Origin: a bacterium | GTDB lineage: Bacteria; UBA8248 | Assembly (NCBI GenBank): GCA_965200245.1 | Contig: CBDATS010000004.1 | Span: 448,001 to 512,000, forward strand | Reading direction: 5' to 3' | Length of the DNA stretch: 64,000 nt | Part shown: one piece after another, positions 9,374-16,951 of the stretch | Position numbering within the stretch: position 1 is the stretch's first letter | How the letters are laid out: every line of letters starts with the position of its first letter | Notes under the pieces: model-generated | Told to the model about the DNA's origin: nothing | Database searches by the model: none | The model's input: the letters and a program-made list of their open reading frames with translations, nothing else | Position numbers and translations under genes: made by a program

Positions 9374-9838
9374 CTAGTTCAGACCCTCAAGCGCCGCGAA
9401 GAGCTTTTCATCGTCGGGTTTCTCGGGCGGAGCCGCCGTCTGCTCCATATAGGCGACATTCCCGTCCTTGTTGACAAGAATCACCGCGCGGTTGCTGAAA
9501 CCCTTGTCGTTCAGCAAGCCATAAGCCGCACACGTTTCCTTGCCGAAAAAGTCGCTCAGTAACGGGAATTCGATGCCGTACTTCTCCGCCCAAGCAACGT
9601 GGGCGAACGGGCTGTCCACGCTGATGCCGATGACCTCGCAGTCGGCGGTGTCAAACCTCGCCTTCTCCTGCTGATAGGCGGGCAGCTGTTCGCTGCATAC
9701 GGAGGAGAAATCGAACGGATAGAAGCAAAGGAGCACGTTCTTCTTGCCACGGTAATCGCTCAACTTGATCGTGTCACCTTCTGCGAGAGTTCTCGGCAGT
9801 TCGAAGTCGGGAGCCGCGTCACCTACGCTCAAAGCCAT
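9374..9838 (-). CDS. Peroxiredoxin (AhpC/TSA, AhpE-like)
   Basis: [20 protein letters not shown] (peroxidatic Cys), GISVDS, FPLLSD, conserved Arg in NRAVILV. Confidence 0.92.
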
Positions 9839-9851
9839 GGAAAAAATCCTC

Positions 9852-10439
<588 letters not shown>

Positions 10440-10685: not shown

Positions 10686-11585
10686 CTATTCCGGTGCGTC
10701 CATTTTCTGTATCTGGTCGAAGTCGCGGTAGAGCAGCGTCAGGTCTTCTTCGATCATCCCCCGATCGACGGCCTTCCTTAAAAACGTGAGCGTGTGCTCG
10801 GCAAGTTGGATGTCAGCACCTCGTCTGCGCCCGATGCCGACGGCGAGGCCGACGTCTTTTTGCAGGTTGTAGATGCGCGCCTGTCCGTTCCACGTTCCCG
10901 AAAGGATGTTGTTCGGAAAACGGTGGCGGCTCGCATAGCTGTAGGCCGTCGAGGCGTTGAAGATGTCGATCATGTCCTCGACACGCATCCCAAGTCGTTC
11001 GACCAGGCGCGCACCCTCGCACGTCGCCAGGAACATCGTGTGAAGTACCATGTTGTGGATGAGTTTCATGGTGTGGCCCGAACCCAATGCGCCCAGATGG
11101 AATATGTGACCCACACAGGGTTTCAGGTATTGCCTCGTGCGCTTGAGGAGTTCTTCGTCCCCTCCGATCATGAGGGTGAGCTTCCCCTCCAGGATATTAC
11201 CCGGACCGCCGCTCATGCCTGCGTCGAGATAGCCCAGCCCCGCACGCTCGGCACGCTTCGCAAGGCGCTTCGTCTTCGCCGGGTCTGAGGTCGTGAGGTC
11301 GTAGATTACGAGGCCTTTCTCCGGATTCTTGAGCAGGCCGTCCTTCCCCTTGAAGCAAATCGCGATTTCTTCCGATGAGGGTACGACGAAGAAGACGACC
11401 GCGCAGGTCTCGCCCATCTCGCGTGGCGTGGCGATAGCCACACCCTCTGTTCCCTCGAACGGTTTGCGCCTCTCCTCCGAAATGTCCCAGATCATCAAGG
11501 GCATCTTCGCCTGGATAAACCTTAGCGCCACGGGACCTCCCATGCGACCCAGGCCGATGACGCCTACGCTCTTTCGTTTCGCCAT
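10686..11585 (-). CDS. NAD(P)-dependent oxidoreductase, 3-hydroxyisobutyrate dehydrogenase family
   Basis: GVIGLGRMG Rossmann motif, DAGMSGG, LTLMIGG, GSGHTMKLIHN (catalytic Lys). Confidence 0.88.
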   Translation of the reverse strand: MAKRKSVGVIGLGRMGGPVALRFIQAKMPLMIWDISEERRKPFEGTEGVAIATPREMGETCAVVFFVVPSSEEIAICFKGKDGLLKNPEKGLVIYDLTTSDPAKTKRLAKRAERAGLGYLDAGMSGGPGNILEGKLTLMIGGDEELLKRTRQYLKPCVGHIFHLGALGSGHTMKLIHNMVLHTMFLATCEGARLVERLGMRVEDMIDIFNASTAYSYASRHRFPNNILSGTWNGQARIYNLQKDVGLAVGIGRRRGADIQLAEHTLTFLRKAVDRGMIEEDLTLLYRDFDQIQKMDAPE

Positions 11586-11623: not shown

Positions 11624-11700
11624 TGGAGCCGACGACCGGACTTGAACCGGTGACCTGCTGATTACGAATCAGCTGCTCTACCTGCCTGAGCTACGTCGGC
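11624..11700 (-). tRNA. tRNA-Thr(CGT)
   Basis: Reverse complement GCCGACGTAGCTCAG...GCTGA TT CGT AA TCAGC...GGTTCAAGTCC...GTCGGCTCCA. Cloverleaf with encoded CCA. Confidence 0.97.
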
Positions 11701-11874: not shown

Positions 11875-11950
<76 letters not shown>

Positions 11951-11978: not shown

Positions 11979-12113
11979 ATACAATACCTCACAGGAACGC
12001 CCGGCCAACGGCAAGTGAGGGCGGGGGAAGGCTGTGCCCCCGTATCGGGGCTGGTTCGCTCGCCTGTGACCGCTCCCTGGTCGATTTCCGCACCTACAAG
12101 ATGGAGACAGAAT

Positions 12114-12497
12114 ATGGACAACGCCGAGAAGAAGGCCTTGATGGATCAGATGGTCGCCGACCGCGGCTGGGTATTGCCGGAACAGGAGTATTATATCGAA
12201 AAGGACCCCGAATACCACGCCAGGCAGAGCGCGGTGTACAATCACGTCCTCAAGCGCGAGGGGGCACTTTCTGAAAAGATGCGCGAGATCATCACCGTCA
12301 CCGCCCTTTGCGTGCGACTGCCTAGCACGGAGGTGGAAACCTACGTTAAAAATCACATCCGGCGTGCGCTGGACCTGGGAGCCACCGAGGATGAAATATT
12401 CGAGGCCGTGCAATGTCTCATCTTCCCGGCCGGCGGCCCCTCACTGATGATGGGCATCAAGTGCCTACGCGCTGTCCTGGAAGAGCGGAAGACTTGA
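12114..12497 (+). CDS. Carboxymuconolactone decarboxylase (CMD/AhpD-like) family protein
   Basis: GALSEKMREII..., HIRRALDLGATEDEIFEA, PAGGP. GGAGA RBS before the ATG at 12114. No CxxC. Confidence 0.85.
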   Translation: MDNAEKKALMDQMVADRGWVLPEQEYYIEKDPEYHARQSAVYNHVLKREGALSEKMREIITVTALCVRLPSTEVETYVKNHIRRALDLGATEDEIFEAVQCLIFPAGGPSLMMGIKCLRAVLEERKT

Positions 12498-12529: not shown

Positions 12530-13267
12530 ATGGACAGAAGCATCTGGGCGACCTGGTACGACCTGCCGAAAGAAGACGAGACCGAATACAACGACTGGCT
12601 CCACCACATCCACATCAAGGACGCGCTCAAGCGCCCCGGCTACATGTGGGCGGCGCACTACGAACTCGTGGACAGGGAATCACCCAAATCCAAGAAAAAA
12701 GATCATCTCGCCTACACGGACGATCCCTCCATCCCCAACGGAACGGAGTTTCTGCTGCTCTTCGGAGGAGCGAGCGCGGAGGTTTTCCTGAGCCCCAACC
12801 CCGCACAGCTTGAGGAATTCTACTCCGATGAGACGAAGACGATGCTTGGCAAAAGAATCGGCGAGCGTACGGGCATCTTCACCGAAGTGGACAGGGTGAA
12901 CGGTCCTGACGCCGCCACGCGTGCTCTGGGCGGCGTGCCCGCGCCTGTCATCCAGATGGGGACATTCAACTGTTTCACGCCCGAGGATGACTTTGACCTG
13001 AGTTCGTGGTACGCGCAGGATCGCCTGCCCGCGATGAAGTACATGCGCGGCTGTGTGGGCACGCGCAAGCTGGTCTCGGTGGCAGGATGGGCGAAACACT
13101 CCATCTTCTATGAGTTCTCCTCGTTGGAGAAAGTTCTCGAACACTTCCCGCGTGCGGACAGGCTCTTCCCGGGAGAGAACGACTGGTCGTACCACGTATG
13201 CCAGCGCCTGCTTCACACGCCCGGCTCGCCCACGCGCGGCAAGCGCATCTGGCCCCCCGTAGAATGA
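12530..13267 (+). CDS. Hypothetical protein with a duplicated EthD/DUF4286-like dimeric alpha-beta barrel
   Basis: Two repeats of the pattern 'E.eyn.W....H....l..pG...a' (ETEYNDWLHHIHIKDALKRPG; DFDLSSWYAQDRLPAMKYMRG). GGGAGA RBS. Confidence 0.65.
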   Translation: MDRSIWATWYDLPKEDETEYNDWLHHIHIKDALKRPGYMWAAHYELVDRESPKSKKKDHLAYTDDPSIPNGTEFLLLFGGASAEVFLSPNPAQLEEFYSDETKTMLGKRIGERTGIFTEVDRVNGPDAATRALGGVPAPVIQMGTFNCFTPEDDFDLSSWYAQDRLPAMKYMRGCVGTRKLVSVAGWAKHSIFYEFSSLEKVLEHFPRADRLFPGENDWSYHVCQRLLHTPGSPTRGKRIWPPVE

Positions 13268-13282
13268 GCAAGGTGGCCAAGA

Positions 13283-13966
13283 ATGAGTTACATGAAACCG
13301 ATACGGGTCGAGGAGGCGGAAGGCGAGGCCGCGAAACTCTTCGCGGGCGTGACGAAGATGCTTGGTCGGGTGGCGAATTCCTTCGCCGTCATGGCCTATC
13401 AGCCCTATGTCGCCAAGGTCATCCTGCCGCTCACGGTGACACTCATGCGCGAGGGACTGGGCACGGTGCTTCCCACCAGGATCAAGGAAATCGCCGTTAT
13501 CAAGACGAGTCACCTGAACGGGTGCGAGTACTGACTCGGACACAACACGGCGCTCGGTCGAGACGCCGGAGTCACCGAGGAACAGGTACACGAAATCTGC
13601 TCGGACGCCTATCTGGACTCCCCAACGATGAGCGCACGTGAGAAGGCCGCCGTCCTGTGGGCGGAGCACGTAACGCGCAACACCGCCAAGACGCGCGACG
13701 ATGTGTTCGAGGAGGTGCGGCGCCACTTCGATGACCGGGAATTCGTCGAACTCACGATGGTCATAACCTACTTCAACATGAGAAACCGCTTTCAGGATGC
13801 CCTGCGCATTCCGCTGGATGAACCGAAAACGATCTCGGACATCACCATAGGGCACAGGCAGGACCCCGAGAACCTCAAAAACTATCTCGCAGGGGTCGTG
13901 GCGACGTGGCCCGAGAGTTTCCCGGGCCCTGCTGCGGAGAATGAACCTGGGGAGCAACGCGAATGA
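13283..13966 (+). CDS. AhpD/CMD-like selenoprotein (CxxU, Sec at codon 84)
   Basis: Track ORFs 13283-13534 and 13628-13966 are in the same frame, separated by one TGA (13532-13534). Read-through gives KEIAVIKTSHLNGCEY-U-LGHNTALGRDAGVTEEQV...SAREKAAVLWAEHVT...EFVELT...NMRNRF, a complete 227-aa AhpD-like protein. Confidence 0.88.
13532..13574 (+). promoter_or_regulatory. Bacterial SECIS-like hairpin
   Basis: TGACTC pairs with GAGTCA (13569-74). Upper stem CGGCG-CTC/GAG-A-CGCCG with apical loop GGTC (13556-59) starting 21 nt after the UGA. Confidence 0.75.
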
Positions 13967-14406
13967 CCGAAAAACCCGATTTCGTCTGGGAAAATCTCAA
14001 GGTCGATATGACGGTCGGCGAGCGGAGCCTTACGGTGACACAGGAGATGGTGGACACGCACTGCGATGCCGTGGGTGCGGAGCGGGAGTGGTACAAGGGA
14101 GATTCCCCCGCGGGCGGGCCCATCGCGCCGCCTATGATCTTCATCAACGACCTGCTCGCCATTTATGATGAGAACTACAAGCGCTTCGGAACTATCCATG
14201 CAAAGCTTGGCTACCGCTTCCACAAACCCGTGCGAGTTGGCGAGACGGTGCATCAAAAAGTCACGGTGAAGGACCTCTACGTGAAGCGTGAGAAGGGCTG
14301 GATTGTGAGCGAACTCGCCGTTACGAACGAGGCGGGAGAGTTGTTGCTCACCTCTTCTCATACTTCCGTCTTGAGTCTCACGAGAAAGCATGGAGAAAAC
14401 GACTGA
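13963..14406 (+). CDS. MaoC-like hot-dog protein (probable non-catalytic partner subunit)
   Basis: Y...SPAGGPIAPP, GTIHAKLGYRFHKPVRVGE, NEAGELL. ATGA overlap with the selenoprotein stop. Lacks D-x4-H. Confidence 0.8.
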   Translation: MTEKPDFVWENLKVDMTVGERSLTVTQEMVDTHCDAVGAEREWYKGDSPAGGPIAPPMIFINDLLAIYDENYKRFGTIHAKLGYRFHKPVRVGETVHQKVTVKDLYVKREKGWIVSELAVTNEAGELLLTSSHTSVLSLTRKHGEND

Positions 14407-14830
14407 TATGCTGCCTGAAAACCTGAATGTAGGCGACGCCCTTCCCGAACGGACATACAAGGTGGATTGGGAGGATATTCTCAGATTCAACTGCTACGTC
14501 ACAGGTGGCGTGGACACCAAAAATATCCACACTGACGATGAGGTAGCGCGCAAAGCGGGTCTTCCCCGCGCGGTGGCGACGGGCCGCCACCCGGTCTCGT
14601 TCATCACAGAAACCATGGTCGATTATCTGGGGATGGGCTTCATCCTGTATGGTGAGGTGGAGGTTTCCTTTATCAAGCCGATATTCCCGGGCGACGTTCT
14701 GACACTTTCGGCGAGGCTGAAACAAAAAACGCCTGACACGGACGCAACGCACTATCTGTTCGACGTTTCGCTCACGAACCAGGATGACACAGCCGTAACT
14801 ATCGGCACTGCAGGCGGCCGTCTGGGCTGA
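14390..14830 (+). CDS. MaoC family (R)-enoyl-CoA hydratase/dehydratase
   Basis: DTKNIHTDDEVARKAGLPRAVATG (D-x4-H hydratase-2 motif), FIKPIFPGDVL, NQD. Alternative start at 14408. Confidence 0.85.
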   Translation: MEKTTDMLPENLNVGDALPERTYKVDWEDILRFNCYVTGGVDTKNIHTDDEVARKAGLPRAVATGRHPVSFITETMVDYLGMGFILYGEVEVSFIKPIFPGDVLTLSARLKQKTPDTDATHYLFDVSLTNQDDTAVTIGTAGGRLG

Positions 14831-14840
14831 TATTCGATTC

Positions 14841-16951
14841 ATGTACACGAACGAAAGCCTCAAGAGTCTCTTTCATCCCGAATCTTTCGCAGTGGTGGGC
14901 GCGGCCTCGGACCCGAACCGTCTGGGTGGTATCCCCTTGAGGCTTACGATGCGCTACGGTTTTCCCGGCCCCATCTATCCCATCAACCCGAGGCGTGAGG
15001 AGATCGCGGGCCTTAAGTGCTACCCCGAGATCGCCTCCCTGCCTGAAACGCCCGAGTTCGCGTTGATCTGCACCCCGCGAGAAGACGTGCTGCCCGCCCT
15101 CGCACAGTGCGCGGAACGCGGCGTCAAGGCCGCCGTCGTCATCACTTCGGGTTTTGCGGAAACAGGTGCGGAAGGCGTGGCGCTTCAGGAAAAGATACTG
15201 GAACTCCGCGATACGTCCGGCATGCGCGTGCTCGGTCCCAACTGCATGGGTGTTGTGCACGTGCGTTCGAGGCTCATGGCCACGTTCACGATATCCATCC
15301 GCGACGACGACCCCCTCATACCGGGAGCGGTGGCCATCGTCACCCAGAGCGGGGCGATGGGGGCGTGCATGCTCACGGGCTTTCAGGAGAGCGGCTCAGG
15401 CATCAGCAGCCTCGTGAGCCTCGGCAACGAGGTGGACGTTGATTTTGCCGAATGTGTCGAATACTTCATCGACGATCCGCACACGCGCGTCATCTGCGGA
15501 TATCTGGAATCGGTGCGAGACGGCGAACGGCTGCAGCGCGCTGCCCTGCGCGCAATGGAGTGTGGAAAACCCATCGTGCTACTCAAAGGGGGAAAACCGA
15601 GGAGGGCGCACGCGCCGCGCGCAGCCACACCGCTGCCATCACGAGTTCGAGCGACGTTTTCGACGCTTTCGCCGCACAATACGGGATTCAGGTGCTGGAT
15701 TCGATGGACGAATTCATCGAGATAGCGGATTTCCTCGCGCGCACGAGACCGATTCGGGGAAACGGGGTGGGAATCCTGAGCTTTTCGGGCGGGCTCGGCG
15801 CGCTCGCGGCGGACCTGTCGACCGAGGCAGGCTTTACGCTTCCCATTCTTGCGGAAGGTACACAAGAAAAACTCGCGGGCGTCCTGCCCGATTACGCTCC
15901 CAAGGACAACCCCGTCGACCTCGTATCCCTTATGGTCAGCAAGCCCGAGAGCCAACCGCTCAAGACGGCGGGCGAAGCTGTGGCGGGGGACAAGAACGTG
16001 GACGCCCTGCTATTCCTCATGGGCGTCTACCACCACGTAGGAGAGCAGATAGCACAGGAAGTCAAGGCGCTGTTCAACACCTCGCCTGTGCCCCTCGCAT
16101 TCGCCTGGCTCACCGGTCCGCGAGATCGGATAGAGGCACTCAGGAAAGACTCCGTCCCCGTCTTCGGTGATTACGCAAGGGCAATTCGAGCACTGGAATC
16201 CCTTTTATTTCTCAAAAACGCTCGTGAGGCGTCCTCCTGCCGGTTCCGCGCTATCGCCTCGGCGCGCGCCGAGGCGGCGAGGCTGATCATACATGAAGCC
16301 CCCCGGTCCCCCGATGGTTTTTTGCCGCCGGAAGCTTGCGCCCGGATCCTCGATCTCTACGGCGTCCCAAGACCCAAGGAGGCGCTCGTGGGCACGGCGG
16401 AAGAAGCGCTCAAGGCGTGGAAGGAAATTCAGGCGCCCGTTGCACTCAAGGTCATATCGGATAACCTCTCGCACAAGACCGAAGCGGGTGGTGTGCTCTT
16501 GAACCTCGATACGCCCGACGAAGTCCTCGCCTGCGCCGAGCGGCTGCTCTCGCTCGCTGATGACGCACGCCTTCTCGTGCAGGAAATGATAGAAGGGGGC
16601 ATCGAACTCCTCGTCGGCACATCGCAAGACCCGACATTCGGCCCGTGCGTGACAGCGGGGCTGGGCGGGGTGTACGTGGAAGCACTGAACGACGTGGCCC
16701 GTCTGTTGCCACCCTTCAGTGCCAGGGAGGCCGAAAGCACGCTCTCGAGCCTCCGCTCGCGCGTCATACTGGAGGGTTTCCGAGGCGGGCCAACCATTCA
16801 AATCCCGCACATATCCGATATAATGGTCAGAATTTCGGAATTGGCGACAGAACTCGGAAACGAACTCGCCGAGATGGACTTGAACCCGCTCATCGCCACG
16901 GCGGAAGGCTGCATCGCCGCGGACGTTCGGATAAAGATCAACTCCCAGTGA
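14841..16951 (+). CDS. ADP-forming acyl-CoA synthetase (acetate-CoA ligase family), frameshifted at ~15590-15596
   Basis: First frame has CoA-binding (AVVGAS, YPINP, GPNCMG, TQSGA, SLGNEVD). The -1 frame continues GKTEEGARAARSHTA (phospho-His) and the ATP-grasp domain (PVALK, HKTEAGGV, DPTFGP, EMDLNP). Confidence 0.85.

Follow-up and report, generated by a model that had tools for sequence, protein, structure and literature searches.

Results

A single reading frame interrupted by one TGA

The window, a stretch of 64,000 nucleotides from a bacterium of the lineage UBA8248 (assembly GCA_965200245.1, contig CBDATS010000004.1, positions 448,001 to 512,000), harbors at 13283-13966 of its forward strand a gene that very probably encodes a selenoprotein of the AhpD/CMD fold. 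The region is a single frame of 227 codons, and its only internal break is the TGA at 13532-13534. As mechanical open frames it is present in the form of two open reading frames (ORFs). The first one (13283..13534, 83 amino acids) closes with N79-G-C81-E-Y83-TGA, and the second one (13628..13966) starts at the ATG located at 13628. The two are bridged by 31 codons (13535-13627) that contain no stop and include the sequence GRDAGVTEEQV. The read-through translation is 227 amino acids long, has the lone internal TGA as residue 84 (U84, selenocysteine or Sec), ends at a terminal TGA (13964-13966), and contains the motif C81-E-Y-U84-L-G-H87. An earlier note on this DNA had described one frame cut by a single TGA at the second Cys of a C-x-x-C-x-x-H motif, with a stop-free bridge between the two ORFs, and both points were confirmed by the sequence and its translation.

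Conservation of the TGA codon and its pairing with cysteine

At the column of U84, full-length homologues of about 220 amino acids (40-53% identity) have a Cys residue within the sequence NGCxYCYAHNT. When the loci L024-L122 were compared by tblastn, 108 matches extended over column 84 and consisted of 99 with TGA, 8 with TGC, and one frame-offset match (L042), rows that are not independent since some genomes were fetched twice. The column therefore shows the Cys/UGA alternation that the earlier note had proposed to look for in an alignment.

A six-frame search covered 61 genomes, i.e., the genome of the window and 60 relatives. Matches were found in 47 of them, including 22/22 of the genus and 36/36 of the family, and all but two of the matches listed carried at least one TGA. 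Orthologues (76-91% identity, one of them partial) were present in 19 of the 22 genus genomes, each with the TGA codon. By tblastn, TGA occupies column 84 in 19 of the 20 loci L024-L043, a count that includes the window's own locus. In the twentieth, L042, the TAC-TGA-CTC DNA is unchanged, although the tblastn alignment is shifted in frame just upstream; this locus comes from a genome (G006) with 16% estimated contamination, and the shift suggests an indel in the assembly. Among the 76 marine metagenome relatives that cover the codon, 75 have TGA and one has TGT. The coding sequence is under selection on both sides of the TGA: the ratio of nonsynonymous to synonymous substitution rates (dN/dS), determined against 18 orthologues, was 0.04-0.20 over the 80 codons that precede it and 0.11-0.24 over the 130 that follow.

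Three database homologues (P0018, P0021, and P0024) have Trp at the Sec column, a residue that the earlier note had named as one that would speak against a selenoprotein. This objection was rejected when the DNA was inspected, as TGA stands in place of a Trp codon in L123, the metagenome contig encoding P0021 (99.5% identity). The DNA encoding P0018 and P0024 themselves was not found, and their relatives at about 60-66% identity all have TGA. The Trp in the database homologues is a mistranslated TGA that was called as a sense codon, as checked directly for P0021 only.

A SECIS-like hairpin downstream of the UGA

The RNA that follows the UGA folds into an upper hairpin at 13548-13568, CGGCGCUC-GGUC-GAG(A)CGCCG, in which the GGUC apical loop (13556-13559) begins 21 nt past the UGA. 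A 76-nt piece folded at -27.4 kcal/mol (z -3.0), a value equalled by none of 200 shuffled sequences. The upper hairpin by itself folded at -11.5 kcal/mol, and 8 of 200 shuffles folded equally well. The bacterial selenocysteine insertion sequence (SECIS) model described in the Fig. 2 legend of PMC13188914 has a loop of 3-9 nt with G in the first two loop positions, an upper stem of 4-16 bp, a distance of 16-37 nt from the UGA, and a minimum free energy (MFE) of -7.5 kcal/mol or lower. The hairpin at 13548-13568, with its 4-nt loop, 8 bp plus one bulge, 21-nt distance, and -11.5 kcal/mol, falls within this model in every respect. The upper hairpin, the GGTC loop, and the 21-nt spacing drawn in the earlier note thus found support in folding and covariation. 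Its lower stem, TGACTC/GAGTCA, was discarded; the sequence allows it, but the MFE pairing is a different one, and in the stem as drawn 83.3% of the cells are paired and no pair covaries. The lower stem of the MFE fold was also rejected as a part of the SECIS on the counts given in Table 1.

Covariation was analyzed in codon-anchored 63-nt stretches, which form a gap-free alignment. The hairpin occurs in two registers: the orthologue clade and the sisters nearest to it have a bulged nucleotide, and most other forms are bulge-free. In the bulged register (alignment A2, 24 distinct sequences), 95.3% of the cells were paired and double-sided changes were seen at 4 of the 8 pairs (26 cells), in sequences that are mutually related and encode a conserved peptide; none of 500 shuffles scored as high, and slid controls reached 24-54%. 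The bulge-free register (alignment A3, 31 sequences), read with the same caveat, was 91.9% paired, with 5 pairs (20 cells) changed on both sides and 0/500 shuffles as high. RNAalifold independently yielded the 13548-13568 hairpin. The Cys forms provide a natural control: at least 7 of the 8 pairs are retained in 56 of the 62 distinct TGA forms versus 2 of the 8 Cys forms, and the GGTC loop is present in 49 of the TGA forms versus none of the Cys forms. The Gly codon is GGT in the same number of TGA forms (49/62) and GGC or GGG in all eight Cys forms.

Selenocysteine machinery, genetic code, and reads

The assembly that contains the window also encodes the components that are needed for Sec insertion and that the earlier note had recommended looking for. 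A tRNA-Sec with the anticodon tca was detected at 75.9 bits, selA and selB scored 572.7 and 391.9 bits and are both located on the contig of the window (C4), and selD (338.6 bits; C8:72779-73741) has an in-frame TGA itself. All four exceed the curated cut-offs. TGA is the commonest stop codon of this genome, where it closes 1252 of the 2510 open frames that reach 300 codons or more, and it closes 10 of the 16 window genes that were checked, including the gene located 15 nt upstream of the frame under study. Because of this stop usage the genetic code was taken to be standard, and recoding according to code 4 or 25 was ruled out.

The earlier note had also considered that the true codon could be TGC or TGT, and the available data did not bear this out. 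Besides the TGA in the orthologues, a contig from another study's run covers the whole stretch with 0 differences, a contig from an RNA library (13459-13723) crosses the TGA with 0 differences, and four raw DNA reads agree with the stretch. These matches count solely against an assembly error.

Protein family, fold, and active site

The 227-amino acid protein matches the Pfam family CMD (PF02627) with 42.3 bits (cut-off 23, E 7.4e-11, residues 60-128) and the NCBIfam AhpD core model TIGR00778 with 33 bits (cut-off 27.8). Its best full-length NCBIfam match is NF053654, followed by TIGR01926. YciW, the protein named in the title of NF053654, is presumably linked to COG2128. By sequence, its closest relative of solved structure is PA0269 of Pseudomonas aeruginosa (E 3e-18). 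An AlphaFold2 model built from 23 sequences had a mean predicted local distance difference test (pLDDT) value of 87.5, and its structure matches in Foldseek were led by 6k40 (template modeling score TMt 0.81), followed by 2prr, 2oyo, and 3c1l, and included the debrominase Bmp8. The protein has the AhpD/CMD fold. Compared with NF053654 and TIGR01926, it is extended at the C terminus by about 45 residues; this extension is conserved and includes Y201, W209, and P210.

As given in the text of PMC3141380, the AhpD proton relay in PA0269 consists of Glu36, Cys48, Tyr50, Cys51, and His55. Four of these five residues have counterparts in register in the protein under study, namely Glu69, Cys81, Tyr83, and Sec84. 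By analogy, the chemistry of the protein may be of the AhpD type.

Gene neighborhood

The features of the locus, together with related genes elsewhere in the same genome, are listed in Table 1. The gene under study is the third one in a same-strand cluster, in which it is preceded by a CMD gene without CxxC and by a gene for a 245-residue protein. It is followed by two hotdog dehydratase subunits, an ADP-forming acyl-CoA synthetase that extends over two frames, two further hotdog genes, and a short-chain dehydrogenase/reductase (SDR).

Table 1. Features of the AhpD-like selenoprotein locus (positions in the window) and related genes in the same genome (contig:positions).
Feature	Position	Strand	Basis
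Shine-Dalgarno-like AAGGTGG, putative	13270..13276	+	6 nt before the ATG; read from the sequence
AhpD-like selenoprotein coding sequence (predicted), 227 codons + terminal TGA	13283..13966	+	CMD, TIGR00778, orthologues aligned over residues 1-227
Glu69, 11 residues before Cys81; Glu position of the AhpD proton relay	13487..13489	+	near-invariant in alignment A4; relay residues as given in the text of PMC3141380
Redox motif C81-E82-Y83-U84; Sec codon 13532-13534	13523..13534	+	Cys in homologues, TGA kept in orthologues
His87, three residues past Sec	13541..13543	+	invariant column in alignment A4
SECIS upper hairpin, 8 bp + one bulged A, GGUC apical loop	13548..13568	+	folding, covariation, RNAalifold
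Non-conserved lower extension of the stem in the MFE fold (CUCGG/CCGAG plus AC/GU)	13535..13579	+	folding; 66.7% of cells paired, 0 covarying pairs
Terminal stop TGA, in overlap with the next gene's ATG (13963-13965)	13964..13966	+	sequence, ORF list
CMD-family gene without CxxC/CxxU, first of cluster	12015..12497	+	Pfam CMD E 3.9e-10
245-amino acid tandem ferredoxin-like (dimeric alpha-beta barrel) protein	12530..13267	+	conserved adjacency, AlphaFold, Foldseek
Two overlapping hotdog-fold (MaoC/HadAB-like dehydratase) genes, 13963-14406 and 14390-14830	13963..14830	+	family matches; downstream of most orthologues
Further CxxU CMD/AhpD-fold genes	C4:91071-91421(-), C4:267619-268146(-), C4:815883-816062(+), C4:1107232		own genome
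Further CxxU CMD/AhpD-fold genes	C5:15070-15615(-), C5:510287, C5:562926-563444(-), C5:686669		own genome
Further CxxU CMD/AhpD-fold genes	C8:205858, C8:277104, C2:110790, C15:128374-128721(-)		own genome

The likely start of the 245-residue protein, as set by its homologues, is the Met at 12530 and not the one at 12413. In orthologous loci its gene lies directly upstream of the Sec-AhpD gene. A 44-48% identical homologue lies directly downstream of another group of Sec-AhpD-like genes, and homologues adjoin Sec-AhpD genes in alphaproteobacterial metagenome-assembled genomes (MAGs), so that both gene orders are seen. Three of the five clear paralogues in the genome of the window (G000) adjoin a Sec-AhpD gene. 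The copies noted as such neighbors in this genome are the one in the window (12530-13267, +), C4:1106460-1107194, and C5:511008-511721, and the neighbor was also found in loci L064-L073, L078, L082, L083, L090, and L118-L121. Its invariant residues include H25, H43, H190, and H229.

No significant Pfam family was found for this protein, the sole Pfam match being DUF4286 at E 0.016. Its AlphaFold model (pLDDT 75.6) is a tandem ferredoxin-like barrel. The Foldseek matches are at the fold level (TM 0.4-0.65) and include anthrone-oxidase-like proteins and putative monooxygenases, a bacterial chalcone isomerase, sulfur oxygenase reductase, and coproheme decarboxylase; protein atlas leads pointed to DUF4286, EthD, and NIPSNAP-like clusters. 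The pairing of the two genes, found three times in this genome and in two gene orders, raises the idea that a Sec-AhpD protein and its cofactor-less-oxygenase-like neighbor form an undescribed conserved two-gene redox module; together with the 13 CxxU genes described below, this would make the family a main driver of the very large selenoproteomes of the lineage. We regard this idea as tentative and rather doubtful. In a possible scheme, the neighbor would make or bind a peroxide, sulfur, or organic intermediate that the selenol enzyme would then reduce.

The acyl-CoA synthetase (14841-16951, +) is distributed over two frames, with 14841-15725 corresponding to positions 5-246 and 15452-16951 to positions 242-697 of the 698-position model NF045493. 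This arrangement implies a frameshift near 15584-15605, which is either an assembly error or a real break. A peroxiredoxin gene (AhpC/TSA; 9374-9886) and a gene for an Fe/Mn superoxide dismutase occupy 9374-10439 of the opposite strand, 3-4 kb upstream. Between them and the cluster there are a dehydrogenase gene (10686-11585, -) and tRNA genes at 11624-11700 and 11875-11950. The same-strand cluster contains no AhpC-type peroxiredoxin, the nearest being this one, 3.4 kb away.

Expansion of the family and public annotation

When the genome of the window was searched with the 227-residue protein, nine more homologues (28-54% identity) were found with TGA at the same column, in addition to one Cys form and one homologue without the motif. 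Searches with family models added three more CxxU CMD-fold genes. In total, this 3.7-Mb genome has 13 CxxU CMD-fold candidate genes, a count that includes the gene in the window. One of them, C4:267619-268146, is a true TIGR01926 member (102.2 bits) and has a TGA.

Many public homologues are C-terminal fragments of 124-141 amino acids, some of them titled 'hypothetical protein'. The view that gene callers split such genes, put forward in the earlier note, agrees with the form in which many of the public homologues are seen. Relatives of the protein are therefore miscalled in public data, either shortened and titled 'hypothetical protein' or, under a wrong code, given a Trp in the active site, and a 227-residue selenoenzyme would be hidden in each such genome because of it. 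In the public proteins P0003-P0016 (313-366 amino acids), the N-terminal part corresponds to the region past the TGA in one AhpD-like domain, and a second AhpD-like domain, which has lost the first Cys, follows; these proteins are probably two-domain selenoproteins shortened by gene callers. Loci L078, L082, L090, L101, L105, L112, L118, L120, and L121, which come from other MAGs, each contain two TGA-bearing AhpD-like genes separated by no more than a few kb.

Discussion

We favor, with a probability of about 0.93, the interpretation that 13283-13966 is one gene for a 227-residue AhpD/CMD-fold selenoprotein in which the UGA is read as Sec and which would have a redox role. This is also what the earlier note had concluded of a selenoenzyme split by gene callers, and the Sec/Cys pairing, the conservation, the selection, the hairpin, and the machinery argue for it. 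The UGA at 13532-13534 would be decoded as Sec, with the hairpin at 13548-13568 recruiting SelB and the Sec-tRNA(Sec) while the ribosome sits on the UGA, and the second TGA, at 13964-13966, which is without such a hairpin, would terminate translation. In the protein, Sec84 would take the place of the second Cys of a C-x-x-C motif within the conserved AhpD helix pair, surrounded by Glu69, Cys81, Tyr83, and His87. The enzyme is probably a selenol/thiol oxidoreductase that would cycle through a Cys81-Sec84 selenenylsulfide. By analogy with PA0269 and the AhpD of Mycobacterium tuberculosis, it could either reduce hydroperoxides directly or re-reduce a partner protein, as AhpD does for AhpC.

Several observations weigh against this interpretation. 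The evidence for selenium in the 227-residue protein is indirect. The scores of the two best full-length models are below their curated cut-offs, those of NF053654 (YciW-related (seleno)protein; residues 1-178) being 77.6 versus 310 bits and those of TIGR01926 (peroxidase-related enzyme; residues 2-177) 62.8 versus 81.8 bits, and the protein is for this reason placed in a sister subfamily and not among the members. In the HMMER alignment the invariant His87 lies one residue before the position of His55 of PA0269, i.e., at +3 and not at +4. The orthologue was not found in 3 of the 22 genus genomes (G007, G009, and G017), where the best match is 51-53% identical. Two of the eight Cys forms hold 7 of the 8 pairs of the hairpin, so part of the pairing stems from the conserved S/A-L-G-x-A-A coding sequence. 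The dip in synonymous differences (pS) over the 12 codons past the TGA is modest (0.19 versus 0.35 elsewhere), and the sequences were sorted into the two registers by better fit before the pairs were counted, a procedure that favors structure. A search of 13400-13700 at E <= 10 gave no Rfam match, in a database whose coverage of bacterial SECIS elements is uncertain. The genome is a MAG with 8.11% estimated contamination, in which the tRNA-Sec and selD genes are on contigs other than that of the window. The RNA-library contigs possibly represent carried-over DNA, and the DNA contig might stem from the same source as the window.

Three alternatives do without selenium. The TGA could simply terminate translation in a pseudogene or split gene, leaving an 83-residue fragment and a downstream part that is either dead or made from the ATG at 13628, as the two mechanical ORFs and the 124-141-residue public calls would suggest. 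Nonetheless, the same TGA recurs in 19 of the 22 genus genomes, in nine homologues of the same genome, and in 75 of the 76 metagenome relatives, the 31-codon bridge between the ORFs is conserved and has no stop, and dN/dS stays at 0.11-0.24 past the TGA; according to the predicted model, an AhpD fold that ended at residue 83 would also lose core helices. We consider this explanation extremely improbable. It is very improbable, too, that one of the standard amino acids (Trp, Cys, Gly, or Arg) is inserted at the UGA through an altered code or near-cognate suppression. The Trp found at this column in three database homologues would fit, but it is an artefact of DNA that has TGA, the code is standard by stop usage (1252/2510 long frames; 10/16 window genes), and a dedicated tRNA-Sec is present with selA, selB, and selD. 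Furthermore, a covarying hairpin stands at SECIS distance, and the UGA lines up with Cys in a redox motif. The chance that a sequencing or assembly error changed a TGC or TGT into TGA is next to negligible. A second apparent frameshift exists nearby, in the acyl-CoA synthetase, but the same TGA is found in many independent assemblies, and the contigs that cover the codon, from another study's run and from an RNA library, have 0 differences.

A different question is whether a selenoprotein at this locus would act on peroxides. The protein could use its thiol and selenol in other chemistry, such as Bmp8-like dehalogenation or YciW-like reactions of sulfur or cysteine, in concert with its neighbor and the acyl-CoA genes. 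Bmp8 is among the sequence and fold matches, and the best NCBIfam match is a YciW-related (seleno)protein model, but all these matches are weak and at the fold level. The conserved neighbor with an oxygenase-like fold, the hotdog dehydratases, ADP-forming acyl-CoA synthetase, and SDR of the same-strand cluster, and the position of the nearest AhpC-type peroxiredoxin outside this cluster are consistent with such a role. On the other hand, the protein retains four of the five residues of the AhpD relay, and the text of PMC3141380 reports weak peroxidase activity for PA0269, its closest homologue of solved structure. We find non-peroxide chemistry unlikely, although it deserves serious consideration.

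The family, the motif, and the decoding mechanism are already known, and the selenoprotein proposed here does not represent a novel type of system. Selenoproteins of the AhpD-like CxxU type were already recognized in 2005-2008 and rank among the commonest selenoprotein families of prokaryotes. The Sargasso Sea study reportedly included AhpD-like selenoproteins of marine metagenomes. The tables of the Global Ocean Sampling (GOS) data set list 299 'AhpD-like 1' (COG2128, CxxU) and 70 'AhpD-like 2' (Pfam CMD, CxxU) sequences (PMC2398784), and a 2026 review lists TIGR01926 as an 'AhpD-like protein' CxxU selenoprotein (PMC13188914). The earlier note was correct in stating that such proteins are known, which limits novelty. 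The GOS proteins and the one in the window are alike in fold family, in a CxxU motif with Sec in the second position, and in having Cys homologues; the marine metagenome relatives fetched here (75/76 TGA) probably belong to the same family as the GOS proteins. The protein in the window is about 50% identical to the marine forms, comes from a MAG labeled Nitrospinota, and has a SECIS with a bulged A that the marine forms do not have. The covarying set of hairpins could help to refine SECIS models.

The NCBIfam selenoprotein models NF053654, TIGR01926, NF041238, and NF041047 are the nearest curated models. The first two match nearly end to end, yet far below their cut-offs, and the protein adds its C-terminal extension to them. 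With the PA0269 family (2o4d, 2ijc, and 7xw1), as presented in the text of PMC3141380, it shares the helix-pair motif with Glu, Cys-x-Tyr-Cys, and His. It differs in having Sec for the second Cys, in the alignment of H87 with a Met and of N88 with His55, and in its length (227 versus 145-165 amino acids). The relay of M. tuberculosis AhpD consists of Glu118, Cys130, His132, Cys133, and His137 according to the same text. That enzyme resembles the protein in the window in its CxxC-type center within a CMD fold and in the Glu located 11 residues before the first Cys. The redox motif is N-terminal in the protein in the window and C-terminal in M. tuberculosis AhpD (text of PMC3141380), and, unlike the mycobacterial gene, the one in the window has no adjacent ahpC.

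The closest public relatives are labeled as Nitrospinota MAGs, and the gene adds one more well-supported case for a heavy selenium investment by this lineage, which appears as UBA8248 in BSepDB. In Table 2 of the BSepDB paper, three UBA8248 MAGs, which have 54, 50, and 48 selenoprotein genes, are listed with the largest selenoproteomes of bacteria (PMC13326102). The text of this paper gives totals per organism only, and contains nothing on AhpD-like copy number or the neighbor gene (PMC13326102). A search of the literature on the selenoproteins of the lineage, with supplements and database contents outside its scope, returned only this table and nothing on the neighbor gene or the number of AhpD-like copies. 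The conserved neighbor is the sole lead beyond what is known, and the 13-fold expansion of the family is also noteworthy. The BSepDB MAG with 54 selenoprotein genes has the same name as the source of L055 and L083, family-level relatives of the window in which an orthologue (66% identity) and a homologue (53% identity) of the gene are found.

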